From Candidatus Saccharimonadales bacterium (lineage in GTDB: Bacteria > Patescibacteriota > Saccharimonadia > Saccharimonadales > UBA4665): a DNA stretch of 64,000 bases. The notes beneath the pieces are model-generated. The model saw only the letters and a list, made by a program, of their open reading frames with translations. It made no database searches and was not told where the DNA came from. Location: contig JBBRNI010000005.1 of the NCBI GenBank assembly GCA_038230395.1, positions 834 to 64,833 of the forward strand, read 5' to 3'. Shown piece after piece: positions 10,779 through 34,640 of this stretch (positions within the stretch are counted from its first letter, which is position 1; the number at the start of each line of letters is the position of its first letter). A program made the translations under genes and the position numbers.

Positions 10779-13364
10779 GTGGCAACCTCACTCTCCTGGA
10801 TCGTCGAATACATCGTCCTCACTAGCCTACTAATCTTATGTGCCGACATTCTCCGAAGACACAAAAACTTCCAGCATTACAAAAAATTAAACAGCGTTAT
10901 TCTTGAGTTGACGCCGCCAGCCTTCGCGCGCAAGACGCCACTAGCGACCGAGCAGCTGTTCCAGACGCTGCATAGCCTCGGCTCAGCGCAGACACTCAGG
11001 GAGCGCCTGCTCGACCGTGGTAATCGATATTCATTCGAGGTCGTGTCGTCACGTTCGGCAGGCATTCGGTTCATGGCCCGGATGAAGCAGTGCGATGTTG
11101 CAATATTTCAGCAACAGCTGGCAGCCTACATGCCGGATGTGAAGTTTGCTGTAGTGCCGGACTATCTGCCAGAGCTAGTGGCAGGCAAGCAAACAACGTT
11201 AGCTTGTTATGAATTCAAGCAAGGCGGGCACTTTGCTTTTCCACTAGCGGCGCACGACGCACTCATACAGCACGACCCGATTGCATACATAACTGGCTCG
11301 ATGACTAAGTTGGCGCCGAGTGAGCTAATTGCTTATCAAGTTGTCTTGTCACCGGCAAACAAGCGTGAAGTTACCCGGATTCGCAACAAGCTGTACTTAG
11401 GCAAGGACCCTGATTTGTACGGCAAAAATCGTACGCTTGGTAAAAAAGCACTGGTCTTGATGCTACAGATTCCGTTCATCATACTAAGCGGAATACTCGG
11501 CTTGATTGGCAGCTTTTTTGATGACACGTCGTATCACAGCAAATCGAATGCCTATAAAGCGCCAGTCGTGCCGCAGCGCGCACCTGAGCATCAAGAATTA
11601 CTAGCCACGCTCGGAGACAAGCTCAAACAGCCACTATTTCACGCTAGTATCCGCGTTTTAGTCGTTACAGACGATCGCATGAAAGCCGGGCAGAGCATCC
11701 AAGGCCTCAGCTCAGCGCTGGGATTGTTCAGCGTGCCAGGCTTTCAAAGTTTGATCGCCAAGCGCAATTTCCCAAGAAGCAAGATGAATGTACACCGACT
11801 GCATAGCTTTGCCAGCCGGTGGCTACCGATACTGATGCGCCATAGCAGTATCGTGTCCGTATCGGAAGTCGCCAGCTTGTACCACTTTCCGTTCGGCGAG
11901 ACAGCTCGACCAGAGAATTTGGCGCGGTCGCAAAGCCGGACATTGCCAGCACCATTCGCTTTGAAAGCCAGGGCTGATGAACAAGCCTTCGACGTCGTCC
12001 TCGGTGAAAACCAACACCACGGCAGCACCAATCCGATTGGCTTACTGGCCAGCGAACGCCAGCAACATGTTTACGTCATTGGTGGTACCGGCAACGGTAA
12101 AACTACAATGCTGCAATATGCCATTGTCCAGGACATGCGAGCGGGTAAAGGTGTGGCCGTGATCGATCCGCACGGCGATATGGCTCAGACGCTGCTAACC
12201 TACGTGCCGAAAGACCGGATAGACGATGTCGTCTACCTCAATCCCGTTAATATTGATTACCCAATTGGTATTAACGTCTTAGAGCTTCCGACTGGCCTGA
12301 GTGGCAGCCAGCTGCTACTTGAGAAGGAGCGTGTGACTGAGGCTGTCATTTCCATATTACGCAAAGTCTTCTCTGACGATGCTAACAATGCACACCGCAT
12401 CGAAGGCATCTTGCGCAATGCCATTCATACCGCTATAAGCGTCGAGGTTGCCACGTTGTTTACCGTCCTCAAGATTCTGCGTAACACTAACTACCGCAAA
12501 ACCGTTGTAGCTCAGCTCACCGACGAACACCTGCGCGATTTCTGGAAAGAAGAGTTCGGCCAAGCCGGTGACATGCAGCGCGTTAGCCTAAGCAAGGGTG
12601 TCACCAACCGCATCGACCGCTTCCGCAGCTCAAAGCCAGCCGAGCGGATGCTCGAGCAAGCCCATTCAACAATTAGCTTCGAGGACATCATCGATTCTGG
12701 CAAGATTCTGATCTGCAACTTTGCTGAGGGCAACTTAGGCGAAGATACTTCGGCACTGTTTGGCACGACTATTCTAGCCAAGCTTAAGCTGGCTGCTGAG
12801 CGCCGAGCACGCATGTCGGCGGAAGACCGCCAACCATTCTATCTCTACGTCGATGAATTCCAGAACTTCGCGACCACACCGTTCGTCAAGATGCTGTCTA
12901 GCTCACGCAAATACAAACTATTCTTGGCGCTTGCACAGCAGTCCACCAGCCAGCAGGATGAGCAGCGCCTTACCGAGACGATTCTATCTAATGTCAGCAC
13001 CGTCGTCTGCTTCCGTACCGGCAGCCCAGCTGACGAGCAGTTGATCCTGCCGCGCTTTAGCCCGTTCATCGAGCAAGGGGAAATCGGCAACCTGCCAGCC
13101 TATCATTACTACATCCGTGTCCAGGCGCAGGAATCGCTGGAGCCGATGTCGGGCGTCACACTCCAGCTGGATGATGACTGGAGCGAAGATGTTGCTGACG
13201 CAGTGGCCGAAGCTTCTCGGAAGAACTATGCTTTGCAGTATGTAGAAATGCAGCCTGAACAAAAGCTTGCCAAGCCTAACACGGGCAGGGCAGCTAAAAC
13301 TACCCATAAAAAATCTAGTGGCATGAAAAAGCCGGTCAAACACAAATCAAAAGCCACAAAGTAA
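10779..13364 (+). CDS. Type IV coupling protein-like (TraD/VirD4/HerA-FtsK superfamily) membrane ATPase
   Basis: Two N-terminal TM segments. Walker A GGTGNGKTT followed by VIDPHGD. Walker B-like FYLYVDEFQNF followed by SSRKYKLFLALAQQS. Lys-rich C-terminal tail. Confidence 0.7.
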   Translation: MATSLSWIVEYIVLTSLLILCADILRRHKNFQHYKKLNSVILELTPPAFARKTPLATEQLFQTLHSLGSAQTLRERLLDRGNRYSFEVVSSRSAGIRFMARMKQCDVAIFQQQLAAYMPDVKFAVVPDYLPELVAGKQTTLACYEFKQGGHFAFPLAAHDALIQHDPIAYITGSMTKLAPSELIAYQVVLSPANKREVTRIRNKLYLGKDPDLYGKNRTLGKKALVLMLQIPFIILSGILGLIGSFFDDTSYHSKSNAYKAPVVPQRAPEHQELLATLGDKLKQPLFHASIRVLVVTDDRMKAGQSIQGLSSALGLFSVPGFQSLIAKRNFPRSKMNVHRLHSFASRWLPILMRHSSIVSVSEVASLYHFPFGETARPENLARSQSRTLPAPFALKARADEQAFDVVLGENQHHGSTNPIGLLASERQQHVYVIGGTGNGKTTMLQYAIVQDMRAGKGVAVIDPHGDMAQTLLTYVPKDRIDDVVYLNPVNIDYPIGINVLELPTGLSGSQLLLEKERVTEAVISILRKVFSDDANNAHRIEGILRNAIHTAISVEVATLFTVLKILRNTNYRKTVVAQLTDEHLRDFWKEEFGQAGDMQRVSLSKGVTNRIDRFRSSKPAERMLEQAHSTISFEDIIDSGKILICNFAEGNLGEDTSALFGTTILAKLKLAAERRARMSAEDRQPFYLYVDEFQNFATTPFVKMLSSSRKYKLFLALAQQSTSQQDEQRLTETILSNVSTVVCFRTGSPADEQLILPRFSPFIEQGEIGNLPAYHYYIRVQAQESLEPMSGVTLQLDDDWSEDVADAVAEASRKNYALQYVEMQPEQKLAKPNTGRAAKTTHKKSSGMKKPVKHKSKATK

Positions 13365-13417
13365 AAGCTGACTTCACGCACCGCATCGCCTTCAGCAACG
13401 ACCACATAGACGAGCTA

Positions 13418-13870
13418 ATGGCCGCGGTGCAGGTTGTGTGGGGCAAGCGCCAAGTAGAACTAAACAAGGAGGAGGTAGCCGTAGAAACAAACCTCAAGGG
13501 TCTCTACGCCCAAGCAAAGGCCATTATGGACAAGATAAAGATGCTAAGTAGCCAAACAGTAATTAAGTATATGGAGGACGAGCTGATGCAAGTCGAAACT
13601 GAGATCGAGAACATCAAAAACGTTACCAAACAAAAAACCGCCATTCCAGCGGTCAATATTACGGTCGTTACGGCCTGCGTACGATACTTTCTGCAACACC
13701 TAGACTACTTGTTGTTACAGCAGAGTGATCCTGAGCAAAAAGCCAACTTTTTTGGCCTGATTTACGAGAAAGTGCCCACTTATCAAGAAATGGTTTCTGT
13801 AACCGAAAATTCCGGAGAATTAACAGGGGTAAGTGAACTTTTTTTAGCTCGAAACATTGAAAGGTACTTA
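13418..13870 (+). pseudogene. Recombinase/integrase C-terminal remnant (family unresolved; resembles the coiled-coil C-terminal part of large serine recombinases)
   Basis: The frame is open only from 13319, after an in-frame TAG at 13316. There is no start codon before 13418, so there is no room for a catalytic domain. Track ORF 13418..14002 reads straight through the antisense of tRNA-Leu, so its last ~45 codons are not genuine. Confidence 0.35.
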
Positions 13871-13871
13871 C

Positions 13872-13958
13872 TGGTGGGCGAGGGGGGACTTGAACCCCCA
13901 CGAGCTTGCGCTCACAAGATTTTGAGTCTAGCGTGTATACCAATTTCACCACTCGCCC
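13872..13958 (-). tRNA. tRNA-Leu (anticodon CAA)
   Basis: 87 nt folded by hand. Acceptor GGGCGAG/CTCGCCC and D stem GTG/CAC. Anticodon loop CTCAAAA, with one U-U mismatch in the anticodon stem. Variable arm GAGC-GCAA-GCTC, T arm GGGGG-TTCAAGT-CCCCC, encoded ACCA. Confidence 0.9.
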
Positions 13959-14094
13959 GCGCTACTAGATCTGTGCATTTCATTACGCTTACGATTCAGT
14001 AGGCCACCAGGGGCGTATTGTACTATACTTAGGAGGTAAGATCCAAGTACACATACTCGCAAAGCCTGGGTACTTCTTATTTGTACTGTTTATT

Positions 14095-15354
14095 ATGGCA
14101 ACAAACCCGCTTACTCCAATCGAACCAAACAAATCAGCCCTGGCGGCGGATGTTATTCGTGATAAAGTCGCCCGACTCTATAGCAGTGAGCCCGACGCCG
14201 CTACCGAAGAACTTGAAGCCGAAGCAGCTACACACCGCAGCCCCCATCAACAGTTCATGTATGACCTGAGTGCCTCTGGCAAAAGTCTAGCAACAATCCA
14301 GACCGAATGGCACAGCTACTACCTGTCTTTGTCTGAGCACGAGCGGCGGCAAGTATGGCAAGAATTTTACGCTAGTCAGTCTAGCGTTACTGGGATCAAG
14401 CCAATTGAAGTAGCACATGTCGAAGCGCAACATAAACATGCTGTCGTCCCAAAAGGACATCGCAAGCCAACTAAAACTAGGTCTCTCAAAGACTTAAGAA
14501 GCCCAGGAGCAATTCAGGCGACAATCCGCGACACTGTGACCGGAGGCGGTAAGTTAGAAGTTAAGCACCACGTTCAGTCGCTATTATTTGGGCTTGGAAT
14601 GGGTAGTATCGTGGTTGTTATATTCTTATTTAGCTTCTTTAACGAGGTTATTATCGCGCCGTTCATCCAACCAAGTCGAGTTGCCGCCGCTACGCCACTT
14701 ATTATTAGTGCCGACAGTGTGGCGCCATCCAAGACGCCCGAAGTAATTATTCCTAAAATCAACGTAGAAATACCGGTAAATTATAGTGAGTCCTCGACGG
14801 TGGAAGCTAATATAGAAAACGACCTGGAGAGTGGAATCGTTCATTACCCAGGCACAGTTGTGCCAGGCGAGAATGGCAACGCCGCATTTTTTGGGCACAG
14901 CAGTAATAACATCCTCAATCCTGGCAAATACAAATTCGCTTTCGTTCTGCTCCATACCATGGTGCCTGGTGACACCTTTTACTTGACCTACAGCGGTAAA
15001 GTGTTCGTCTATAAAGTAATAAGTAAAACCGTCGTTGATCCGAGTGATGTCGGTGTATTAGGTCCAGTGCCTGGTCAGACAGCCACAGCCACGCTTATTA
15101 CCTGTGACCCACCCGGCACAAGCCTTAAACGATTAATTTTGGTAGGTCAACAGATTAGTCCAGCAATAACTGGTAACTCTACGCCGGCAGTTACAGCTGT
15201 ATCGGCAGCCCCAGCCACAGCGGCTTTACCAGGCAACGGACCGACGCTACTAAACCGAGTTTCCAAGACAACAACAGGCAAGATAATCATGGCCGTGATT
15301 ATACTACTAGCTATTGGCCTTGTAATTCGCTGGATCCGCAAGCCATATCGGTAA
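14095..15354 (+). CDS. Sortase-family transpeptidase with long N-terminal region and C-terminal TM
   Basis: Catalytic TLITCDPPG (TLxTC) and an upstream FFGHSSNN His. TM segments flank the catalytic domain. Confidence 0.85.
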   Translation: MATNPLTPIEPNKSALAADVIRDKVARLYSSEPDAATEELEAEAATHRSPHQQFMYDLSASGKSLATIQTEWHSYYLSLSEHERRQVWQEFYASQSSVTGIKPIEVAHVEAQHKHAVVPKGHRKPTKTRSLKDLRSPGAIQATIRDTVTGGGKLEVKHHVQSLLFGLGMGSIVVVIFLFSFFNEVIIAPFIQPSRVAAATPLIISADSVAPSKTPEVIIPKINVEIPVNYSESSTVEANIENDLESGIVHYPGTVVPGENGNAAFFGHSSNNILNPGKYKFAFVLLHTMVPGDTFYLTYSGKVFVYKVISKTVVDPSDVGVLGPVPGQTATATLITCDPPGTSLKRLILVGQQISPAITGNSTPAVTAVSAAPATAALPGNGPTLLNRVSKTTTGKIIMAVIILLAIGLVIRWIRKPYR

Positions 15355-15377
15355 GGCTTAGAAGGTCAAAAAGCCTT

Positions 15378-16874
15378 CTACAAGTCCGATGGTATCAACA
15401 GAAGAGTATTGGTTAAAATAGCTCCATTACCAGATGCTACAAAGCTATAAACGTTTTTATAGTCAGGTGTAAAAAACGGAGTGGACGAGGGGCTACCTGG
15501 TATAAAAGAACGTTGATTTGTTTGATCAAAATCAAGAATTTGGATCATTGCAGATCCCTCCGATGGACTAACACCCGTATAGGTTAGCCTATTACCATCC
15601 ATCCACTTTACATGCGGCTGATTCGAATTAATTGAAACTTTGGTCGCCAGATCATAGTTGTACCCATTTTTATTTTCTAAATCATAAATGGCAACTTGGT
15701 TCCCGTGCTCCGCCAAGATGTACTGCGAATTACTGGAAAAACTTTCGTAGTCAGGGCCTCTCACACGCAATACCTGGATAGGTACAATCACTTGGGCCGG
15801 ATGTACTGCTAGTTGAGATGCGGGATCCTTGTAAATGTAGACCTTATTTTCATCAACACTGCTGGCGACAACATACGGAGTATTGCTATAGTTTGCCAGG
15901 TCAACAATGTAGCGCGTACTGGCTGGGAAACTCCGCAGTAGAACGGTGCGACTGCCAGTTTGTTGCTTGAGTAGCACCTTACCAGCTGGCGCATCAACGC
16001 TAGTAAAGTACACTAGCGTACTATCTCCATAAGATTTATAAGCTAAAACGTCACTGATAAGACTTACAGCCGCAGGAGCTTTGAGTGATGCGGTTCGCAA
16101 ATTATGGTCAGCAGAATTATAAAGGTAATATTGGTCATACTTCTTATTGCTTAAGGCTACTGCGGCAGTCGTGTTCTCGAGTGTTTTAGTAAGATTCAGT
16201 GATTGGTCAGGATTCTCACGGTCAAGCATAATATACTCGACAGTAGTATCAGCAGTGTGTTGCAAAAGGAGATGTTGATTATCGTCGGCCCACTCCACAA
16301 CCTGCCAGTTCTCACTGGTCGCTGCTTTAGTCGCTATATCGATTGGTAGACTAATTGTTAGGGCTAGTTTGGTTGGGTTCTTCAAGTCATATACAGCAAA
16401 ATTATCAGGGCCAGCAATATCATTGGTTACTAACCAGCGGCGATCCGGACTCTGAGAAGTTAGTCCAGGCATGGTCGCTAAGGGCAGGAGCGTCGTTGTT
16501 TTGACCACTTTGGGAAGCAAGAGCGGATAATCATAGTGGGTAACGCTGCCGCCATTTACCTCAATTGTGCGCTGCCAATCTTGGTAACCCGGCCTTGACA
16601 TACGCACTCTGTAAATACTAGCCGGTAACGCTACCCGGGCGTTAGTGTCTGATGTAGCGCGCTTACCATTAAGGAACACTTTGGCAGGGTTAGGACTGCT
16701 AGAGAAAAAAACTATGCCGTTTTGGATTACTGTACCGTTTTTATCGATACCAAAACCATAGGCCTGGTAGACCAGCACAACAGTAGCAATAATTATAGCA
16801 ACTGACATGCAGACGTAGCCAAACAGTAATAAAATGCCATGTCGGCGTTGTTTTTGAGGGTCAAGATAATCCAT
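15378..16874 (-). CDS. PEGA-domain envelope protein with beta-propeller-like C-terminal region
   Basis: N-terminal TM, then a PEGA-like segment (AKVFLNGKRATSDTNARVALPASIYRVRMSRPGYQDW). Confidence 0.7.
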   Translation of the reverse strand: MDYLDPQKQRRHGILLLFGYVCMSVAIIIATVVLVYQAYGFGIDKNGTVIQNGIVFFSSSPNPAKVFLNGKRATSDTNARVALPASIYRVRMSRPGYQDWQRTIEVNGGSVTHYDYPLLLPKVVKTTTLLPLATMPGLTSQSPDRRWLVTNDIAGPDNFAVYDLKNPTKLALTISLPIDIATKAATSENWQVVEWADDNQHLLLQHTADTTVEYIMLDRENPDQSLNLTKTLENTTAAVALSNKKYDQYYLYNSADHNLRTASLKAPAAVSLISDVLAYKSYGDSTLVYFTSVDAPAGKVLLKQQTGSRTVLLRSFPASTRYIVDLANYSNTPYVVASSVDENKVYIYKDPASQLAVHPAQVIVPIQVLRVRGPDYESFSSNSQYILAEHGNQVAIYDLENKNGYNYDLATKVSINSNQPHVKWMDGNRLTYTGVSPSEGSAMIQILDFDQTNQRSFIPGSPSSTPFFTPDYKNVYSFVASGNGAILTNTLLLIPSDL

Positions 16875-26902: not shown

Positions 26903-28111
26903 ATGCGTACTATGCAGCAATCTACAGTGTGGCAGAGATCAGCAACTATTATTACTACAGCCGTTACGGCTTTGTTCGGGTTTAGCGGCTTCGCGGCAGC
27001 TGACGCGATTATCACTACGGGTCCGGGTTCAACTAATTCAATTAGCGCCAGCCAGGACAACACGTGTAATGTTTCTAATTCGAACCGACTAAATCTCAAT
27101 TCTTCCAACAGTCAATCAGCTGAGAGCGGTTCCGCTACCGCTGCTGGCAACACCAGCGCTGGTTCAGCAACAACTGGCGAAGCTAGCAACAACAATGCCA
27201 CAAACGCCACAGTAAACGTCGACAATAGCGGGGCATCGCTAGCTTGTGTTTGTGAAGCCGCTCCGGCACCAGTCGCGGCTAATAACACCATTAGCAACAC
27301 TGGCCCACAATCTCATAACAGTATCAGTACCTCGTCCGAAACAACTACGAATGTTACGAATTCCAATACGGTTAATATCAGCAATAACACCAATAGTGAA
27401 AATGAGGGTAGCAACCAGAATGCCACGACAGGCGACGCAGTAGTCACTGACAATACCTCCGGCGGTTCGGCCAGTACTGGTGATGCTAGTAATAGCAACC
27501 AAAGCGACTTTGTAGTCAACCTCGTAAATGGCGCCGACGCAGGCATAGCAGCAGCAGTCAACAACAACTTTAACGATGCCTGCGCTACAAACACAGCACC
27601 AACCGTATCTAATAACTTCGGTGGCCTGGGTGGCGGTTCATTAACTCCTTCATCAGCACCACTAGTTACTAGTGCACTATTTCGCCCCAGCTCTCCACGA
27701 TCCACAGGATCAGGATACGGTGGTGGAAGTAGTCGCTATTACGCAACACCCGTGATAAGCCGCTCTTCGGCCCCAGCTCCACAAGTTACTAACTGCCCGC
27801 CTGCAGCAGTCACACCTGTCAGTAGCCAGCAATCCAGTGCCCCGGTAACAGCTGTCGCCCGCACAGCCCCAGCACCAGTCACAAGCACAATTAGTAACAC
27901 TGGCCCAGGCTCAGATAACAGTATCAGTAACAACAATTCAAGCTCAACAACAGTCAGCAACACTAACAATGTCTCAGTCTCCAACAACAATAATCAAAGT
28001 TCCAGCACTGGTTCAGCAGTAGTCACCGACAACACCACTGGCGGTTCAGCAACGACAGGAACTGCTAGCAACTATGACGCAGCTATCAGCAACACCTACG
28101 TCAGTAATTAG
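26903..28111 (+). CDS. Secreted Asn/Ser/Thr-rich protein with three ~70-75-aa modules
   Basis: Signal peptide ends ..FSGFAAADA. Modules start at about 27008, 27287 and 27887. Each begins I-[ST]-[NT]-TGP-[GQ]-S-x-NSIS and ends ..GDA/GSAVVTDNT-x-GGSA-[ST]-TG-x-ASN. Confidence 0.7.
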   Translation: MRTMQQSTVWQRSATIITTAVTALFGFSGFAAADAIITTGPGSTNSISASQDNTCNVSNSNRLNLNSSNSQSAESGSATAAGNTSAGSATTGEASNNNATNATVNVDNSGASLACVCEAAPAPVAANNTISNTGPQSHNSISTSSETTTNVTNSNTVNISNNTNSENEGSNQNATTGDAVVTDNTSGGSASTGDASNSNQSDFVVNLVNGADAGIAAAVNNNFNDACATNTAPTVSNNFGGLGGGSLTPSSAPLVTSALFRPSSPRSTGSGYGGGSSRYYATPVISRSSAPAPQVTNCPPAAVTPVSSQQSSAPVTAVARTAPAPVTSTISNTGPGSDNSISNNNSSSTTVSNTNNVSVSNNNNQSSSTGSAVVTDNTTGGSATTGTASNYDAAISNTYVSN

Positions 28112-28151: not shown

Positions 28152-28203
28152 AAGTCGACAGCAATGTTTAGGGTTTATTCCCTGATGCAGCTGTCGACTT
28201 TTT
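28152..28203 (+). terminator. Hairpin + T-tract terminator for the 26903..28111 gene
   Basis: 11-bp perfect stem AAGTCGACAGC (28152..28162) / GCTGTCGACTT (28190..28200) followed by a T run. The loop is large (27 nt) and contains the stop codon of the convergent gene. Confidence 0.4.
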
Positions 28204-29865
28204 GGTCTTTATTGGTTTGACTGATATTGTCTTAGAGGCTCGAGTTTTTAAGCGTTCCGCGACTGAGGCGGCTGGAAAGTTGTCTGACTCAGTAATTACT
28301 GACTGATTAGGAATATGCTGGGAGCTTTGTTTTGCAACCAATGGCGCGAGTATAGAATCAGACACAGGCCGTGATTGAACCAAAGGCGTTACATCCGAAA
28401 CAATTCTTATGCTGTCAGTTTTAATAATTGGCGCTGAAGCAACTTGGCTATGTGCCGGTGCAGTAGTTGGTAACATGTCATTGACCATTAGATCAGTCCT
28501 ATGCGTGGTAATAACAGGGTCTGGCTGTGTAGTGGTGGTACCGCTAAGCGTAGTGACGGCTGAAACAGGTGCGACAGTAAGCCTATCAACCTTCTGGTCA
28601 AGTGTACTAAATAATGCCGTTCCAGCATCATCAGTAACATGAGCGGCTGCTAATGAGCGCGAAGAGCCTCGATGTCGCCAACCTACAAGTTTCATAACAA
28701 AGGTTGAACCAAACAAGACTAGATCCAGCCCCAACAGGGTCAATACGATTAGAACTAAACCGAGTGAGGTTAGCATCCAGTGATTTAACGGCTGTTTGGC
28801 CATATCAAGTTGGAATGGCGGTAGCGGTTTAGTGGCTCGAGCTACAGTAATTGGCCGTCGTATAGTGAACCCATTGTAGGTAATCACTACTTGCTTACTG
28901 CCTAGGCTGGCAGTAAGGTTTGCCTGACCTTTGGCGTCTGTAGTGGCAGTTTGATTATCAAGAGTTACATCCGCGTTCGGCTGGGGCTTGCCATTGTCCG
29001 CACGTACTATCACTGTTACCGGGACTCCTGGTAATTGCAATGTTTGGTCAGTACCAGTTTGGACGTTTCCTGAAGCGTCGGCGCTCTTAACCCTAAAATG
29101 CAGGAGAGCTTTTGGGGTCAAGAAAGAGCTTGATAGACTGACCTCGTGTGTGGTGGTGGCCCCAGTTTGGGAGGCGGATAACCCATAATTAGCATCTAGA
29201 CCATAATCGACCACTGAATCAGATGACTCATCGGTCGTCCAATCAATTAGTGCACTATAAGGCGTCTTCGATTTAACTTTGACCTTAGTTATAACCGGTG
29301 GCGTAGTGTCCTTGGGTGGAGCCGGTGTCTCAGGTGCAGCGGGAGAAGACGATGTGCTAGATGGCGCTGACGTCGCTACCTGGCCAAAGTTAACGCTGAC
29401 ACCACCTGGAGAAAAACTAACTGCATTACCATCTGTGACTAACGCGGAATTACCACCAACGCTAATAGCTGCACTACCACTGCTGACGAGGGCTTTAAAC
29501 GTGATCGTGGCAACAAGTCCTGCCCCACTGACGCTTGAGGTGGTGCCACGATCTAACGTAATCGCGCCATCACCACCGCCACCAGAAGCGCTTATTTCGA
29601 AAGCACTACCACTGTAATTGACGCCGACATACTGCAGCTTACTCGCCGGGTAACTAATATCTGCTTCAACTCCATTAATCCCACTGCCGCCGCCGTTCAT
29701 GTAAACGGCTACTATCAGCGAGCCTCCGCTTGCGACCATGGCTTTGTTAGCTACAAGTGATATTGATGCTCCAGCCGCATAGGCTGGAACGGCGGACAGT
29801 ACGGCAGCGGCGCTCACTAACAAACTAAGTACTAATGCGGAGAGTTTATGTTTCATATTTTTCAT
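28168..29865 (-). CDS. Membrane-anchored surface protein with cohesin-like domain, FN3-like and CarboxypepD_reg-like modules, and a cytoplasmic tail
   Basis: Signal peptide ends ..AVPAYA. Cohesin-like segment SISLVANKAMVASGGSLIVAVYMNGGGSGINGVEADISYPASKLQYVGV...GLVATITFKAL. TM at ..LTSLGLVLIVLTLLGLDLVLFG. Confidence 0.6.
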   Translation of the reverse strand: MKNMKHKLSALVLSLLVSAAAVLSAVPAYAAGASISLVANKAMVASGGSLIVAVYMNGGGSGINGVEADISYPASKLQYVGVNYSGSAFEISASGGGGDGAITLDRGTTSSVSGAGLVATITFKALVSSGSAAISVGGNSALVTDGNAVSFSPGGVSVNFGQVATSAPSSTSSSPAAPETPAPPKDTTPPVITKVKVKSKTPYSALIDWTTDESSDSVVDYGLDANYGLSASQTGATTTHEVSLSSSFLTPKALLHFRVKSADASGNVQTGTDQTLQLPGVPVTVIVRADNGKPQPNADVTLDNQTATTDAKGQANLTASLGSKQVVITYNGFTIRRPITVARATKPLPPFQLDMAKQPLNHWMLTSLGLVLIVLTLLGLDLVLFGSTFVMKLVGWRHRGSSRSLAAAHVTDDAGTALFSTLDQKVDRLTVAPVSAVTTLSGTTTTQPDPVITTHRTDLMVNDMLPTTAPAHSQVASAPIIKTDSIRIVSDVTPLVQSRPVSDSILAPLVAKQSSQHIPNQSVITESDNFPAASVAERLKTRASKTISVKPIKTKKSTAASGNKP

Positions 29866-29889
29866 TTTATGGTGCCTTTTTATAGTTCT

Positions 29890-32175
29890 TTATTGGTAAT
29901 TGCTGTTATCGTTTCCGAAGCGAGCCAATAAAGTGCTTAAGTCAAATATATCAACTTTGCCGTTATTATTGAAATCTCCTGTCCCTGGTTTGTTGAAATG
30001 TGACAGTAATATACTTAAGTCGTAGATGTTAACTTTGTGATCACCGTTTAAATCGCCAATGATTGGTGGTGGTGGGTTGTTTATCGCAATATTTATCGAT
30101 TGTGAAGAAAAGTTACCACTGCCATCAACGGCCTTGGCGGTTATGGTGTGAGCGCCATTGTGTACGGCATAGCTGTTCCAGTTAAGACCAAAAGGCGCAG
30201 CTACAACGCTGCTAATAAGCGTGCTGTCTGCATAGAATTCAACCCGGCGCAGGTCTAAATCATCACTAGCCGTGGCGTTAATAGCGAATGTTAGCTGCAG
30301 ACTTTGGCCGTTGCTGGGGCCGGTAATAGCCACTACTGGCGCTGTTGTGTCAGCAAGGGTTACAGCGTCTAAAACCGCTGATTTTGGTGACTCATTAACT
30401 GCGGCGTCAGTGGCTGACACGCTGTACTGATAAGACGTGTTATAGCGTAAACCAGTGTCACTGTATCCAGTACCGGATTGGGTTACTAAGAGCACACCGT
30501 TACGGTACAGGTTATAACTAATGGCCGAGGGCGGTGAAGCGTCATCTATCGCGGCGTTCCAGGTAAGATCGATGCTGGTAGTTGTAGACGTGGGCGAGGC
30601 TAGACCTGCTGGGGTAGCTGGCGGCACAGTGTCTGGGATGGTACTAATGGTTACTGGGCTAGACTGAGCTGAATTGTTGTTAGAGCCATCATGGGCACGT
30701 ATTCGGTAAGTATAACTGGTGTTCACACCAAGGCCAGTGTCGGTAAAATTAGTTCCCGTGGTAGTAGTAATAATGGCATTACCTCTGTACAAATCGTAGC
30801 CTGTAACAGCCACGTTGTCAGTCGCGACGCTCCAGCTCAAACTAATAGTAGTGTCGGTTATTGCGCTCGATTGTAGGTTGGCCGGTATAGATGGAGCGGT
30901 AGTATCGTAAGCAGTGGTGATGCTGAGCGTGGTAGATGCGGCTGAATCATTAGCTGCGGCATCGTAGGCCTTAATGGTGTAATCGTACTGAGTCACTGGT
31001 ATTAACCCAGTGTCATTGTAGCTGGTCGTCGTAGTCGTTCCTAGCAAAGTGCCACCACGATATACTTTGTAGCCTGTAACGGCCACGTCATCAGTCGAAG
31101 CGGTCCAGGCTATCGTAACAAACGTATCGAGGGTGCTAGTAGCGTGAACACTGGCAGGGATTGTTGGAGCAGTCGTGTCATTTGAGCTTGATGTATTGTA
31201 CGGCGCTGATTGCGCAGAGCTGTTACTAGCAGCGTCGTATGCTTGAACTGTATAAGTGTAGCTGCTACTAACATTTAATCCGTTATCGGTGTAACTAGTG
31301 CCTCCTACAGATGCAATCAAGCTTCCACTTCGGTAAACCCGGTAACCTGTGACACCAACGTCATCAGTTGCCGCGTTCCACGCCAGACTGATACTAGACA
31401 CAGTGCTGCTAGTTTTACGGAGATTATCGGGGACGCTAGGAGCAGTTGTATCCGGAGCCGTTCCAGCATTGAGTGAAGCTGAAAGATTAGACCCGTTATT
31501 AGCCGCGTCATGAGCGGCAATCGCGTAGACATAGCCTGTATAAACTGCCAGTCCTGTATCTGTGTATGCTGTCCCGGGTTGGGAACGAACCAGCGCGCCA
31601 TTGCGATATACATCATAACCAGTGACTCCAACGTTGTCATTTGAAACGTTCCAAGCGATCGAAATAGAGTTAGTGGTTTGACCAGTTTGGTGTAAATTCC
31701 CAGGGACACTCGGTGGTGATGTGTCGGCCAGCGTCGCGGCTGTCAGCCCAGAAGATTGTGCCGACTCGTTAGTAGCGGCGTCAAAAGCGCTAACAGTGTA
31801 CAAGTAACTTGTGTTAGGGGTCAGCCCAAGGTCACTGAAGTTAGGGGTCACCGTGGTAGCAACCATGGCTGCATTGCGGTACACGTGGTAACCAGTTACC
31901 CCAACATTATCAGTGGAGGCTGCCCACGATAAATCAATTTCGGTAGCAGATCTACCAGATAGAACCAGGCCAGTTGGTATACTAGGTGGTGTGATATCCG
32001 GATTAGCACCAACAAGTACCGCCCAGAAATTTTGGGCTGCCGCTAAAACGATAACTCCAACTAATAATTCGCCCAGATGTGCCAGGAAGGGGACGTGCTG
32101 ATGTAATGTGTGCCAGCGCGTAATTTTGTGCTTTTTCATGTCTGTTTTGTAAATTGCTAGCCCACCGACTAGCAC
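29890..32175 (-). CDS. Surface protein: N-terminal anchor + six FN3 repeats + Ig-like domain + C-terminal type I dockerin
   Basis: Six D-T-[TS]-[AP]-P-S-[VI]-P...[LI]-[SA]-W....D-[ND]-V-[GA]-VTGY-x-[VL]-YR units. The dockerin has two F-hand repeats, DLNGDHKVNIYD and DFNNNGKVDIFD (29893..30075). Met13 (32139) is an alternative start. Confidence 0.8.
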   Translation of the reverse strand: MLVGGLAIYKTDMKKHKITRWHTLHQHVPFLAHLGELLVGVIVLAAAQNFWAVLVGANPDITPPSIPTGLVLSGRSATEIDLSWAASTDNVGVTGYHVYRNAAMVATTVTPNFSDLGLTPNTSYLYTVSAFDAATNESAQSSGLTAATLADTSPPSVPGNLHQTGQTTNSISIAWNVSNDNVGVTGYDVYRNGALVRSQPGTAYTDTGLAVYTGYVYAIAAHDAANNGSNLSASLNAGTAPDTTAPSVPDNLRKTSSTVSSISLAWNAATDDVGVTGYRVYRSGSLIASVGGTSYTDNGLNVSSSYTYTVQAYDAASNSSAQSAPYNTSSSNDTTAPTIPASVHATSTLDTFVTIAWTASTDDVAVTGYKVYRGGTLLGTTTTTSYNDTGLIPVTQYDYTIKAYDAAANDSAASTTLSITTAYDTTAPSIPANLQSSAITDTTISLSWSVATDNVAVTGYDLYRGNAIITTTTGTNFTDTGLGVNTSYTYRIRAHDGSNNNSAQSSPVTISTIPDTVPPATPAGLASPTSTTTSIDLTWNAAIDDASPPSAISYNLYRNGVLLVTQSGTGYSDTGLRYNTSYQYSVSATDAAVNESPKSAVLDAVTLADTTAPVVAITGPSNGQSLQLTFAINATASDDLDLRRVEFYADSTLISSVVAAPFGLNWNSYAVHNGAHTITAKAVDGSGNFSSQSINIAINNPPPPIIGDLNGDHKVNIYDLSILLSHFNKPGTGDFNNNGKVDIFDLSTLLARFGNDNSNYQ
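30352..31998 (-). repeat. Tandem coding repeat array (FN3 units; five of exactly 91 aa = 273 nt, one of 94 aa)
   Basis: Unit boundaries were counted by hand from the translated protein (aa 60..608). Confidence 0.8.
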
Positions 32176-32307
32176 CTCTATAGTTCTAGAGATAATTTTA
32201 GCACAACCGCTATTACTTTGACAGTGTTCCGGGGCTTCACTTTCGTCCTTTTAGACTCATCAGTACAAACACGCATTTGTATAGTGAAGAGAGAGGTGAG
32301 GAAGGGC

Positions 32308-32415: not shown

Positions 32416-32691
32416 CTACTTGCAACAATCGCGCAGCCACGTGAAAAGGTTGCGAAGGTGTTCCGCGCGTTTTCTGTCGTGCTGGTCGAGCTCGTCGAGT
32501 TCGCTGACCTCCTGCATGATGCTTTTGATCGCTTCATCAAGAACGTCAAGCAACTTGCTGGAGCCGCTGTCGACCATCTCGTGGACTTCGGGCCTGCTCC
32601 CTTTTGGGAAGGCTCTTTTGATCATGGATCCCAACGTCTGGGGGAAAACAATTTGATAGGGTTGGCCGTGAAGTCTCACAATACTCTCCAA
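32416..32691 (-). CDS. Small hypothetical protein, possibly AbrB/MazE-like N-terminus (orphan)
   Basis: The ORF lies in a locally GC-rich patch. GQPYQIVFPQTLGSMIKR resembles a SpoVT/AbrB swapped-hairpin strand-turn, and the C-terminus is an acidic helix. The likely start is GTG at 32679, preceded by GGAGAG. Two long plus-strand ORFs here look like antisense shadows. Confidence 0.35.
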   Translation of the reverse strand: MESIVRLHGQPYQIVFPQTLGSMIKRAFPKGSRPEVHEMVDSGSSKLLDVLDEAIKSIMQEVSELDELDQHDRKRAEHLRNLFTWLRDCCK

Positions 32692-32792: not shown

Positions 32793-33509
32793 CTACTGCT
32801 TAGAGAATACGTATGGTGCTTTAAATCGTAGTGGCGAAGGTAGTTGAGGCGCCGTTAAGCCTGTGCGGCGAGGCGTCGATTGGGGCTTGGTATTTTTTGC
32901 TTTCGGAATTACACGGCTGACAACTAGCTGCGGATCAAATAAACTACCAAAAGCCGAAAAATTCGGTAATCGGTAATCAGGCCCTGCAATGTTAGAATCG
33001 GCCGAATTGAGATAAACTATCGCACTATAACCATCAGCCTGATAATTATGTAGTGCCTGGCCCACTAAAGTTTGTTGTAATATCGGGTCGGCTTTACCGG
33101 CCCCGAACTCAGCTATCCATACTGGCTTACCAAGACTTTGTAACCATGAACGGGCACTGGCTAAATCATCAAAATTCGGCTTAAAATCAGGGTAAAAATA
33201 TTTGTCGTACAAAATGGTCGTAGCGATGACGTCAACGTCGTCGTCGCCAGGATAATAGTCGTTAGACCCAACATTACCAGCTGGAGACCAAACCCACCTT
33301 GATTGCACTCCACCATGCGTTCGCACAAAATCAACGACATGGCGATAAGCAGCGATGTACAGGCTTGGGTCCTGATTGGACCAAGGATATAAGCCTACAA
33401 GTTCCATTTCATGAGCAAAGCGAATATAAACGGGCCGGTGCGAAGCCGCCAACACTGAGCTAATCTGAGACAGTTGTGCGTCGTAGCCGCCATCAACAAT
33501 GCGTTGCAC
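32793..33509 (-). CDS. GH26-like glycoside hydrolase, apparently N-terminally truncated
   Basis: IRFAHEMEL (acid/base Glu context), YYPGDDDVDVIATTILYD and VWIAEFG (nucleophile Glu context). It has a GTG start, no signal peptide, and only ~22 open codons upstream. Confidence 0.55.
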   Translation of the reverse strand: MQRIVDGGYDAQLSQISSVLAASHRPVYIRFAHEMELVGLYPWSNQDPSLYIAAYRHVVDFVRTHGGVQSRWVWSPAGNVGSNDYYPGDDDVDVIATTILYDKYFYPDFKPNFDDLASARSWLQSLGKPVWIAEFGAGKADPILQQTLVGQALHNYQADGYSAIVYLNSADSNIAGPDYRLPNFSAFGSLFDPQLVVSRVIPKAKNTKPQSTPRRTGLTAPQLPSPLRFKAPYVFSKQ

Positions 33510-33610
33510 TGTATTATGAAGTTCACAACGAGAGCGTATCCATGCTGTATTCCGGTTGATTGAGTCGAGCAGTGACTATTTTTACAGATGAACGCTCAGA
33601 AGTACGGCGG

Positions 33611-34555
33611 TCATTGGCTATACGCAGTAAAGGACTTATCTGAAAGTTCAGCAGTTATTCTGGAATTGGGAGTAATAGCAAAAACCTCACCATCAACATG
33701 GCCTAAAATTGGCTCTTCACCGATGTTAAAAGCAATGCTGGTTCGCCTCTCTGCAGGAGCGACCCCGAGCGCCATCTGAACAGCAGCTTTGGCAATAGAC
33801 ATCCGGGTCGGCTGACTATTAACAATATCTAAGAAGTAATTACTGGTATGGTTAACAGCAAAACGACCATACTTGCCAGCTTTTGCAGAATGAACAAGCG
33901 TTCGATCAAGTAATTGGCGAGGTTCTGTTTCACCTGATTCGAAACAGCTAAACGTCTTCAGATCCGCCAGGCTGGAAACCACACTGCGCAGCTCTTGAGT
34001 AATTTGGCCAACTAATGGTACGTTTCGAAGTCTGCTGGTGCGGTGATCGGTAGAGTCAAGACGCTGAGCAAAATCAGCCGTATAGTTAAACCCGGCGTTA
34101 TTTACCGCCATAAACGTGCGCACTGTGTCATCGTCATCAACACTAACCATAAGTGGATGAATGACAACCTGATGGTCACGCTCCAACAACGCAGAAATTG
34201 CTCGTTGACCAGACATTTTACCACTGTGGATTCGGGCAAAATCATTTGCCGAACCCTGCGGAATAGCTATGAGCCGAACGGCTTCTTTTGAACTGGCGAC
34301 TAAACCGTCAGCCGCTACATTGAGTGTTCCATCACCTCCAGCAACTATCATTAAATCGTTGGCTCTCAGTGCTTCTTGAATTTTATATTTTGAGTGTTGA
34401 CGGTCAGCTTCGGTGCTAAGGTATGTCAGTGGCAAATCGTACATTTCACTAGCATATATTAGCTGTTTTTGGGCACGTACAAAACGCCGGCTCGTAGCTT
34501 TGAGCGGATTAAACACCACCAGACCGCGCTCGTGCGGCAGCGAAAGTTTATTCAT
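33611..34555 (-). CDS. Diacylglycerol/lipid kinase family protein (DAGK_cat, YegS/BmrU-like)
   Basis: IVAGGDGTLNVAADGL glycine-rich catalytic motif. Length is typical of the family. Confidence 0.8.
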   Translation of the reverse strand: MNKLSLPHERGLVVFNPLKATSRRFVRAQKQLIYASEMYDLPLTYLSTEADRQHSKYKIQEALRANDLMIVAGGDGTLNVAADGLVASSKEAVRLIAIPQGSANDFARIHSGKMSGQRAISALLERDHQVVIHPLMVSVDDDDTVRTFMAVNNAGFNYTADFAQRLDSTDHRTSRLRNVPLVGQITQELRSVVSSLADLKTFSCFESGETEPRQLLDRTLVHSAKAGKYGRFAVNHTSNYFLDIVNSQPTRMSIAKAAVQMALGVAPAERRTSIAFNIGEEPILGHVDGEVFAITPNSRITAELSDKSFTAYSQ

Positions 34556-34565
34556 AAATTCTATA

Positions 34566-34640
34566 TGGTGATCTCGCGGAGAATCGAACTCCGATTGCCA
34601 GGATGAGAACCTGGCGTCCTAACCGTTAGACGACGAGACC
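34566..34640 (-). tRNA. tRNA-Glu (anticodon CTC)
   Basis: 75 nt folded by hand. Acceptor GGTCTCG/CGAGATC and D arm GTC-TAACGGTTAG-GAC. Anticodon stem CCAGG/CCTGG with loop TTCTCAT. T arm CGGAG-TTCGATT-CTCCG, encoded CCA. Confidence 0.9.

Follow-up and report, generated by a model that had tools for sequence, protein, structure and literature searches.

Adjacent genes for a dockerin-bearing FN3 stalk and a membrane-anchored cohesin protein in a Saccharimonadales bacterium: a predicted surface-display pair

The two genes considered here lie end to end on the minus strand of a stretch of DNA of 64,000 nucleotides (nt) from a Candidatus Saccharimonadales bacterium (GenBank assembly GCA_038230395.1, contig JBBRNI010000005.1, positions 834 to 64,833), which is referred to throughout as the window and from whose first letter all positions are counted. 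The upstream gene, gene A (29890..32175), encodes a stalk-like protein that ends in a dockerin, and the downstream one, gene B (28168..29865), encodes a protein with a cohesin domain and a predicted membrane anchor. The features of A and B described below are all on the minus strand. The interpretation towards which they build is that the cohesin of B probably acts as a socket for the dockerin of A, such that the stalk would be displayed at the cell surface.

Gene A is called as an open reading frame (ORF) of 761 amino acids, which runs from an N-terminal hydrophobic segment through six FN3 repeats and a Big_7 domain to the dockerin. The probable true start of translation is the ATG at 32139, which is residue M13 of the called ORF, and most orthologues begin at the equivalent MK... 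position. Just 5' of the gene is a candidate sigma-70-like promoter (32195..32224; CTGTCA-18-TAAAAT with a TG extension), which is a consensus match only, as chance alone would give 6.2 such sites in the region, where 10 are seen. The hydrophobic segment covers residues 33-56 (32008..32079) and may be a signal-anchor or a signal peptide; an alignment of 42 orthologues retains the pattern E..GQNxW..A(N/D)PDITPPSVP at this position. The polar residues that are kept here (Glu, Gly-Gln-Asn and Trp) are unusual for a cleavable signal peptide. A V-G-A|N sequence in the same N-terminal segment is compatible with a signal-peptidase site. From residue 60 to residue 608 (30352..31998) there are six tandem FN3 repeats with a period of about 91 residues, which the Pfam fn3 profile recovers as six stretches (E 1.8e-36) and whose borders, at residues 60, 151, 242, 333, 424, 515 and 609, are strictly periodic. 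An Ig-like Big_7 domain then occupies residues 613-695 (30091..30339; Pfam match over residues 613-680, 72.5 bits). Neither Pfam nor NCBIfam recognises a catalytic domain, a carbohydrate-binding module (CBM) or another binding domain in A, and the sole NCBIfam match, to the FN3/X1 region of the exoglucanase CbhB, lies far below threshold.

The dockerin occupies residues 705-753 (29917..30063) and is composed of two F-hand segments, DLNGDHKVNIYD and DFNNNGKVDIFD, which start at residues 708 and 734. The Pfam Dockerin_1 profile (PF00404) matches residues 707-749 with 24.0 bits, above its gathering cut-off of 22.9, and in both F-hands oxygen-donor residues are found at loop positions 1, 3, 5, 9 and 12. 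Between the two 22-residue dockerin segments, DLNGDHKVNIYDLSILLSHFNK and DFNNNGKVDIFDLSTLLARFGN, 11/22 residues are identical, and the donors at the five loop positions are Asp or Asn. On sequence and model together the module satisfies the layout of a type I dockerin, which is to say two duplicated segments of ~22 residues, each combining a Ca2+-binding loop with a helix. Residues 600-761 were modelled with AlphaFold from 69 sequences; the model reaches a mean predicted local distance difference test (pLDDT) score of 93.9 and consists of a beta-sandwich followed by two short helices. These are the dockerin helices, at model residues 118-126 and 144-152 (block-mean pLDDT 91-98), and the block means are at least 91 from model residue 11 up to the C-terminal tail. 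When the C-terminal 149 residues are compared with the PDB by phmmer, the matches are to Big_7-like modules and to the Cel48 dockerin of Bacteroides cellulosolvens (2y3n_B, E 0.0022). Foldseek aligns the Big_7 plus dockerin model with modules of C. thermocellum CbhA (3pe9) at a template-modelling score (TM-score) of 0.84; no dockerin chain is among the best 50 matches, a list that is occupied by Big_7-like entries. A homologue search with the C-terminal 162 residues of A alone gives 8 matches.

Gene B encodes 565 amino acids, arranged as a signal peptide, a cohesin, an FN3-like domain, a CarboxypepD_reg-like domain, a transmembrane helix and a disordered tail. The model of B is built on 49 family members and was made as a single-chain fusion of the full protein with the last 160 residues of A. 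The signal peptide (residues 1-30, 29776..29865) ends in ...VPAYA|AGAS, the putative cleavage site; residues 5-23 are helical in the model, and the family alignment retains the AxA-type motif. Residues 31-160 (29386..29775) are assigned to the cohesin from the model and from Foldseek. The block-mean pLDDT over this region is 84-97, and the modelled beta-sandwich has a cohesin fold that superimposes on solved cohesins. The best match to B among PDB structures is the cohesin plus FN3 double module of C. perfringens GH84C (2w1n, E 2e-11), and for the cohesin itself Foldseek returns 2vo8 (TM-score 0.80, root-mean-square deviation 2.6), 2jh2 (0.79, 2.5), the A. fulgidus structure 2xdh (0.73) and the C. 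cellulolyticum structures 1g1k/2vn5 (0.67-0.69, with 1g1k at 0.68), with the type II cohesins 3l8q and 1qzn also among the matches. Several members of the B family have precomputed matches to PF00963, the Pfam Cohesin family, and a profile of the cohesin domain of B finds the Pfam-certified cohesins of a related Saccharibacterial locus (L062, described below) at 1e-22.

Beyond the cohesin, an FN3-like domain of the Pur_ac_phosph_N-like kind (residues 189-280, 29026..29301; block-mean pLDDT 88-98) is accompanied by precomputed PF16656 matches in homologues and by Foldseek matches to 2w1n and 3zk4. It leads into a CarboxypepD_reg-like beta-sandwich (residues 281-345, 28831..29025; block-mean pLDDT 94-98 through residue 340), for which the Pfam profile gives 27.4 bits in B, under the cut-off of 32.3, and 40.8 bits, above the cut-off, in a relative from Woykebacteria (L024). 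The transmembrane helix covers residues 362-385 (28711..28782; helix 362-384 in the model) and contains Asp381, which is nearly invariant in the family alignment. The remainder, residues 386-565 (28171..28710), is a predicted cytoplasmic tail of ~180 residues, disordered, its block-mean pLDDT staying under 45 from residue 401 onwards, and without any domain recognised by Pfam. Towards its C-terminus a (V/I)A-x-RLK(K)P motif (28237-28263), followed by a Lys-rich end, recurs in most family members and may act as a short linear motif recognised by a partner in the cytoplasm. As for the mode of anchoring, Pfam finds no SLH repeats in B, and the sole LPxT[GAS] match, LPTTA, is located in the predicted cytoplasmic tail with no hydrophobic segment after it and therefore does not fit a sortase signal. 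On the model B is anchored by its predicted transmembrane helix, and by neither an SLH domain nor a sortase signal. The motifs of A and B fit neither prepilin-type nor sortase-type processing, and both possibilities were rejected.

The spacer between the two genes (29866..29889) is 24 nt long from the stop codon of A to the start codon of B, carries a weak AAAGG ribosome-binding-like site before the ATG and contains no terminator-like site. The preliminary description of this DNA, which was made from the letters and a list of ORFs, had put the distance at 25 nt; the two ORFs are otherwise as given there, and so is the order of modules in both products. For A this is a hydrophobic N-terminal segment that may be an anchor, together with the six FN3 repeats, Ig-like domain and two-F-hand dockerin that Pfam recognises, and for B the signal peptide, further beta-sandwich modules, transmembrane helix and tail, all of which are seen in its model. 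The two genes also share a reading frame, being one TAA and eight codons apart (29866-29892). The corresponding gaps in related loci are 21 nt in L001 and 9 nt in L005, which are multiples of three, and a 1-nt overlap in L003 and 1 nt in L006, which are not; the shared frame is probably a coincidence rather than programmed readthrough.

Is the adjacency of A and B peculiar to this contig? In four homologues of B, at 77, 63, 55 and 53% identity, an FN3-Big_7-dockerin gene is found directly upstream, with gaps ranging from a 1-nt overlap to 21 nt. With a B-like protein of 35% identity (L007) the upstream partner is an S8 protease-FN3-Big_7-dockerin protein, and with one of 27% identity (L008) the gene order is inverted, such that a 314-amino-acid protein comprising a signal peptide, an unknown domain, Big_7 and a dockerin is encoded directly downstream. 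The cargo in L023 has a shorter stalk and one extra Big_7 domain, and in L062 the B-like gene adjoins the gene for a protein with three cohesins, five FN3 domains and a dockerin. When the B family profile was run against 185,579 species-representative genomes, full-length relatives were found only in Saccharibacteria (L009-L023) and on one Woykebacteria contig (L024), which ends on the side where the partner gene would lie. All named homologues of A and B are from metagenome-assembled genomes of Candidatus Saccharibacteria / Saccharimonadales, that single Woykebacteria relative of B apart. About 16 full-length family clusters are among the best 150 matches of the profile search, the list being filled by giant multi-FN3-like proteins. 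A dockerin hidden Markov model (HMM), built from orthologues of A and hence circular for the A family, though not for the distant partners, detects a single dockerin ORF immediately adjoining the B-like gene in every one of L001-L023, and a further one in L062.

Once duplicate contigs are removed, a dockerin gene lies directly beside the cohesin gene in all 21 distinct loci with a readable flank, with no counter-example. Furthermore, for 43 of 66 full-length B homologues the longest contig is identical or near-identical in size to that of an A homologue, so that both genes were taken to lie on one contig, in many cases only 5-7 kb long. Within the 64-kb window a motif scan, the HMM and the profile find exactly one dockerin and one cohesin. 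The pairing of A and B exceeds chance, and the fact that all related loci open to examination keep the two side by side, despite a change of cargo or an inverted order, argues strongly that they are functional partners. The preliminary description had presented them as partners encoded side by side, which this conservation backs, and had called for a search for further dockerin proteins, which within the window yields only the dockerin of A. Mean identity to orthologues is higher for the dockerin (78%) than for any other module of A; in B the cohesin, at 66%, ranks among the most conserved modules, and the tail reaches 17%.

Some of the related loci contain features of their own. The pair with the protease is at L007:252-4517, where the cargo is subtilisin-like, and the inverted pair is at L008:6001-8567, where the beta-rich N-terminal domain of the cargo gives a weak GH115_C-like match. 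L062:2972-9589 (Ca. Saccharibacteria UBA5148, DHXU01000009.1) comprises three consecutive genes that form a larger cohesin/dockerin cluster. The first encodes a protein of 1000 amino acids with three Pfam cohesins, five FN3 domains and the dockerin, the second is the B-like gene (cohesin, Big_7, transmembrane helix and tail) and the third encodes 706 amino acids with two cohesins and a Big_7 domain; the cluster suggests that true scaffoldin-type assemblies may exist in some Saccharibacteria. Two other Saccharimonadales loci, L076:3751-4638 and L083:5878-6762, encode proteins of ~290 amino acids with two tandem cohesin-like domains, and the dockerin HMM finds no dockerin gene in the flanks retrieved for them.

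The reading that we favour, with a probability of roughly 0.68, is that B is a transmembrane-anchored anchoring scaffoldin with a single cohesin and A its non-enzymatic cognate cargo. B would be exported via its signal peptide and would raise its one cohesin clear of the membrane by means of a Pro/Thr-rich linker, the FN3-like domain, the CarboxypepD_reg-like domain and the single transmembrane helix. The C-terminal, calcium-type dockerin of exported A would plug into this cohesin in a Ca2+-dependent manner, and the enzyme-free stalk (six FN3 repeats and Big_7, that is seven beta-sandwich domains, or ~25 nm by rule of thumb) would thereby be held on the cell surface. The two genes would be co-transcribed. 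Type I dockerins bind in a dual mode, as for instance in 2vn5/2vn6, and because the halves of the dockerin of A are nearly symmetric, a dual binding mode is plausible here by analogy. In related lineages the same socket gene with other dockerin-bearing cargoes would constitute a general surface-display device of Saccharibacteria, a system to which the variability of the cargo points (the S8 protease in L007, the three-cohesin-five-FN3-dockerin protein in L062 and a CE4 and CBM22 protein in Candidatus Teamsevenus rhizospherense, to which we return below). A might serve as an envelope strut, an adhesin or a spacer; a role of the pair in host attachment or signalling is speculation.

A number of results weigh against this assignment. 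The Pfam Cohesin profile scores residues 39-147 of B at 20.6 bits (E 5.5e-4), under its gathering cut-off of 24.1, and a sequence search of the PDB with B gives zero matches. The cohesin claimed in the preliminary description consequently stands as a fold, with TM-scores of up to 0.80, and not at the level of the Pfam cut-off; that description had let the claim hang on profile or structure matches, and Foldseek provides the latter. In the fusion model the dockerin has a pLDDT of ~50 and is not confidently placed, and mutual information between the dockerin/Big_7 columns and those of B, over 42 pairs and hence underpowered, gives no dockerin x cohesin enrichment. There may also be further cohesins or dockerins elsewhere in the genome, of which 64 kb is in view, and the N-terminal hydrophobic segment of A may be an uncleaved anchor, in which case both ends of A would be tethered, unlike those of a classical cargo. 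What else, then, could the pair be? The low-confidence placement of the dockerin, the null covariation and the sub-threshold cohesin would all suit two proteins that are co-regulated but independent, with the dockerin of A binding something other than B, be it calcium, a glycan or another cohesin, and the cohesin-like domain of B acting as a spacer or as a binder of another ligand; many orphan cohesin-like and dockerin-like modules are on record (Peer et al. 2009, as summarised in PMC9012536). We regard such independence as improbable, since adjacency in all 21 loci, at identities down to 27% and through changes of cargo and gene order, would be difficult to account for unless the two were directly linked in function, and since the window holds just one module of each kind. 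A better contender, though still an unlikely one, is that the pair forms a housekeeping envelope structure and not an adhesin, in the shape of a wall-spanning strut, a fence or a closed arch, with A anchored by an N-terminal transmembrane helix and clipped to B at its C-terminus, and with membrane helices of A and B that might touch. Within the closer loci (L001-L021) A is conserved at 59-91%, a level that tracks RlmH, a TylF-type methyltransferase and histidine kinases of the same loci, and this likeness to cytoplasmic housekeeping neighbours speaks for a structural role in the envelope and against a host-specific adhesin under rapid diversification. The absence of a ligand-binding domain in A from the Pfam results, the Glu, Gly-Gln-Asn and Trp conserved in its hydrophobic segment and the nearly invariant Asp of the helix in B are in keeping with such a structure. 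Opposed to it are the V-G-A|N sequence, which fits a signal-peptidase site, and the ordinary signal peptide of the L008 cargo, so that double anchoring is not general. The least probable of the readings takes the closed arch further, into a trans-envelope device that would relay host contact or mechanical load to the cytoplasm as a cohesin-dockerin mechanosensor or contact sensor. A would be held in the membrane by its polar transmembrane segment (E..GQNxW) and clipped to B by the dockerin, and the helix of B with its conserved Asp, together with the (V/I)AxRLKKP motif of the tail, would pass surface events to the cytoplasm. Conservation of E..GQNxW..A(N/D)PDITPPSVP, of Asp381 and of the tail motif allows, without demonstrating, double anchoring or transmembrane coupling of this kind.

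Cohesin and dockerin are the hallmark modules of cellulosomes, and the pair might accordingly be seen as a minimal cellulosome for polysaccharide degradation that recruits glycoside hydrolases to the cell surface, such as the product of the GH26-like ORF (32793-33509, minus strand) ~600 nt upstream, from which A is separated by a small conserved ORF. The dockerin protein of T. rhizospherense carries CE4 and CBM22, that pair having been read as a cellulosome by its discoverers, and the cargo in L007 is a protease. We nevertheless give a cellulosome little credence for A and B. A contains only FN3, Big_7 and dockerin modules, with no catalytic domain or CBM, and B has one cohesin against the several of a scaffoldin, as found in L062. 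No second dockerin occurs within the window. The GH26-like ORF, moreover, is a poor candidate for recruitment. The Pfam match is above threshold (29.9 bits against a cut-off of 20.2) and covers only positions 146-232 of the 311 in the profile, which suggests that the ORF lacks roughly the first 125-145 profile positions at its N-terminus and is a gene remnant. Neither a dockerin motif scan nor the dockerin HMM finds a dockerin in it. In the closest relative, L001, the gene next to the pair is not a homologue of this ORF, and the Pfam listings for the relative loci place no GH26 gene near the pair. The fragment noted upstream in the preliminary description thus exists at its position, and its connection with the module falls away: as a truncated, non-syntenic ORF in which no dockerin was detected, it was ruled out as a member.

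The concept of a side-by-side cohesin and dockerin in an episymbiont-type genome has already been published. In T. rhizospherense, a soil Saccharibacterium, Starr et al. 2018 (PMC6031116) reported a dockerin gene next to a cohesin gene and called the pair a 'simple two-subunit cellulosome', their gene table listing a 476-amino-acid dockerin, CBM22 and CE4 protein and an adjacent, same-strand 309-amino-acid 'Type II cohesin' protein. On annotation, which is the sole basis of comparison, that pair resembles A and B in its phylum, in the shared strand, in the order of the genes, with the cohesin gene directly downstream of the dockerin gene (there with a 2-nt gap), and in having one module of each kind. 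A and B and the related loci fit this published Saccharibacterial pattern of a dockerin gene immediately next to a same-strand cohesin gene. The T. rhizospherense cargo has CE4 and CBM22 and its cohesin protein is short, whereas here the stalk of six FN3 repeats is catalytically empty and B has two extra beta-sandwich domains, a transmembrane anchor and a long tail. What is added here is a transmembrane-anchored single cohesin, accompanied by two extra domains and a tail and paired with an enzyme-free six-FN3 cargo, as well as the strict conservation of the predicted operon across Saccharimonadales, the pattern of cargo swapping and the structural confirmation of the cohesin fold.

Among better-known systems the closest functional likeness is to the anchoring scaffoldins of cellulosomes, such as SdbA/OlpB of C. 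thermocellum with SLH domains and ScaE of R. flavefaciens with a sortase signal. In these, as proposed for B, a cell-bound cohesin binds the dockerin of a partner, which is thereby retained at the surface; B differs in its C-terminal transmembrane helix and cytoplasmic tail, and in a partner that is neither an enzyme nor an enzyme-loaded scaffoldin. The best structural matches, the C. perfringens modules (GH84C 2w1n, GH33 2vo8, and 2jh2), are likewise single, non-cellulosomal cohesins, and 2w1n has the same order of cohesin then FN3, but they are borne on secreted glycoside-hydrolase toxins, where they join enzymes, whereas B is on the membrane with an enzyme-free partner and the sequence identity is only 11-20%. 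Cohesin-dockerin modules with uses other than cellulose degradation are also known from anaerobic methanotrophic (ANME) archaea, where they have been proposed to take part in cell-cell interaction within consortia (PMC9012536), and from the R. bromii amylosome (PMC4611034). The archaeal modules (A. fulgidus 2xdh, ANME) and those of the amylosome are similar to A and B in this non-cellulosic use and dissimilar in lineage and architecture, and no conserved two-gene socket/plug operon with a transmembrane-anchored single cohesin is described in those systems. Finally, the cultivated Southlakia epibionticum has an envelope protein of 927 amino acids with Ig/FN3-like and dockerin domains, SEML1_0315, that is essential in transposon sequencing (Tn-seq) (Wang et al. 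2023, PMC10633639). To one side of it in strain ML1 (SEML1_0311-0319, PMC10633639) are a tRNA-Glu, a response regulator and a histidine kinase, and to the other a PAS protein together with a second regulator. The setting is similar to the present one, in that the pair lies between two two-component systems both here and in L001-L006, and SEML1_0315 may be the positional equivalent of the pair. By annotation and gene order, the grounds of this comparison, SEML1_0315 differs from A in having an alpha/beta hydrolase as its neighbour and no adjacent cohesin gene annotated. An arch-type sensor of the kind outlined above may be related to this essential protein.

The remainder of the window looks like a monoderm-type chromosome of the candidate phyla radiation (CPR). 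It includes a cell-wall and division cluster (MraW, PBP2, MraY, FtsW and MurG) and also encodes GltX, two two-component systems, topoisomerase I and three tRNA genes. Upstream of A on the same strand is an ORF of 91 amino acids (32416-32691), helical-looking and 62% identical to an 83-amino-acid gene at the same position in L001, which is not seen in more distant loci. Next to the GH26-like ORF are a DAGK-family lipid kinase gene (33611-34555) and a tRNA-Glu (34566-34640), and this block (32793-34640, minus strand) looks like lineage-specific content, the GH26-like ORF because it is not homologous to the gene flanking the pair in L001. Convergent with gene B, on the plus strand, is the gene for a 402-amino-acid protein (26903-28111) in which an N-terminal hydrophobic segment is combined with three Ser/Asn/Thr-rich repeats of ~80 residues (ISNTGPGSxNSIS...TGGSAxTGxASN). 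It has no Pfam or NCBIfam match. A counterpart with 66% identity accompanies the pair in L001, and L003 and L006 retain remnants; the protein may be another surface protein of this neighbourhood. Some 12-17 kb from the pair, positions 10779-16874 encode a VirD4/TraG-like type IV secretion coupling ATPase (861 amino acids), a sortase (419 amino acids) and a PEGA-domain protein (498 amino acids). A sortase is therefore encoded in this genome, yet B has a transmembrane anchor.

Attachment to host cells is the way of life of Saccharibacteria and other CPR bacteria, and few of the molecules at the interface are known. The general understanding of cohesin-dockerin biology is unchanged by the pair, which could, in practical terms, serve as an orthogonal cohesin-dockerin pair in protein engineering. 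For the organisms themselves, the dockerin/cohesin plug-and-socket pair represents a conserved, modular, predicted surface-display system across soil Saccharimonadales, in which a constant membrane-anchored socket is combined with exchangeable cargo, be it an FN3 stalk, a protease, a multi-cohesin scaffoldin or, from the literature, an esterase with a CBM, and it helps to interpret the dockerin protein found by Tn-seq to be essential in a cultivated Saccharibacterium.

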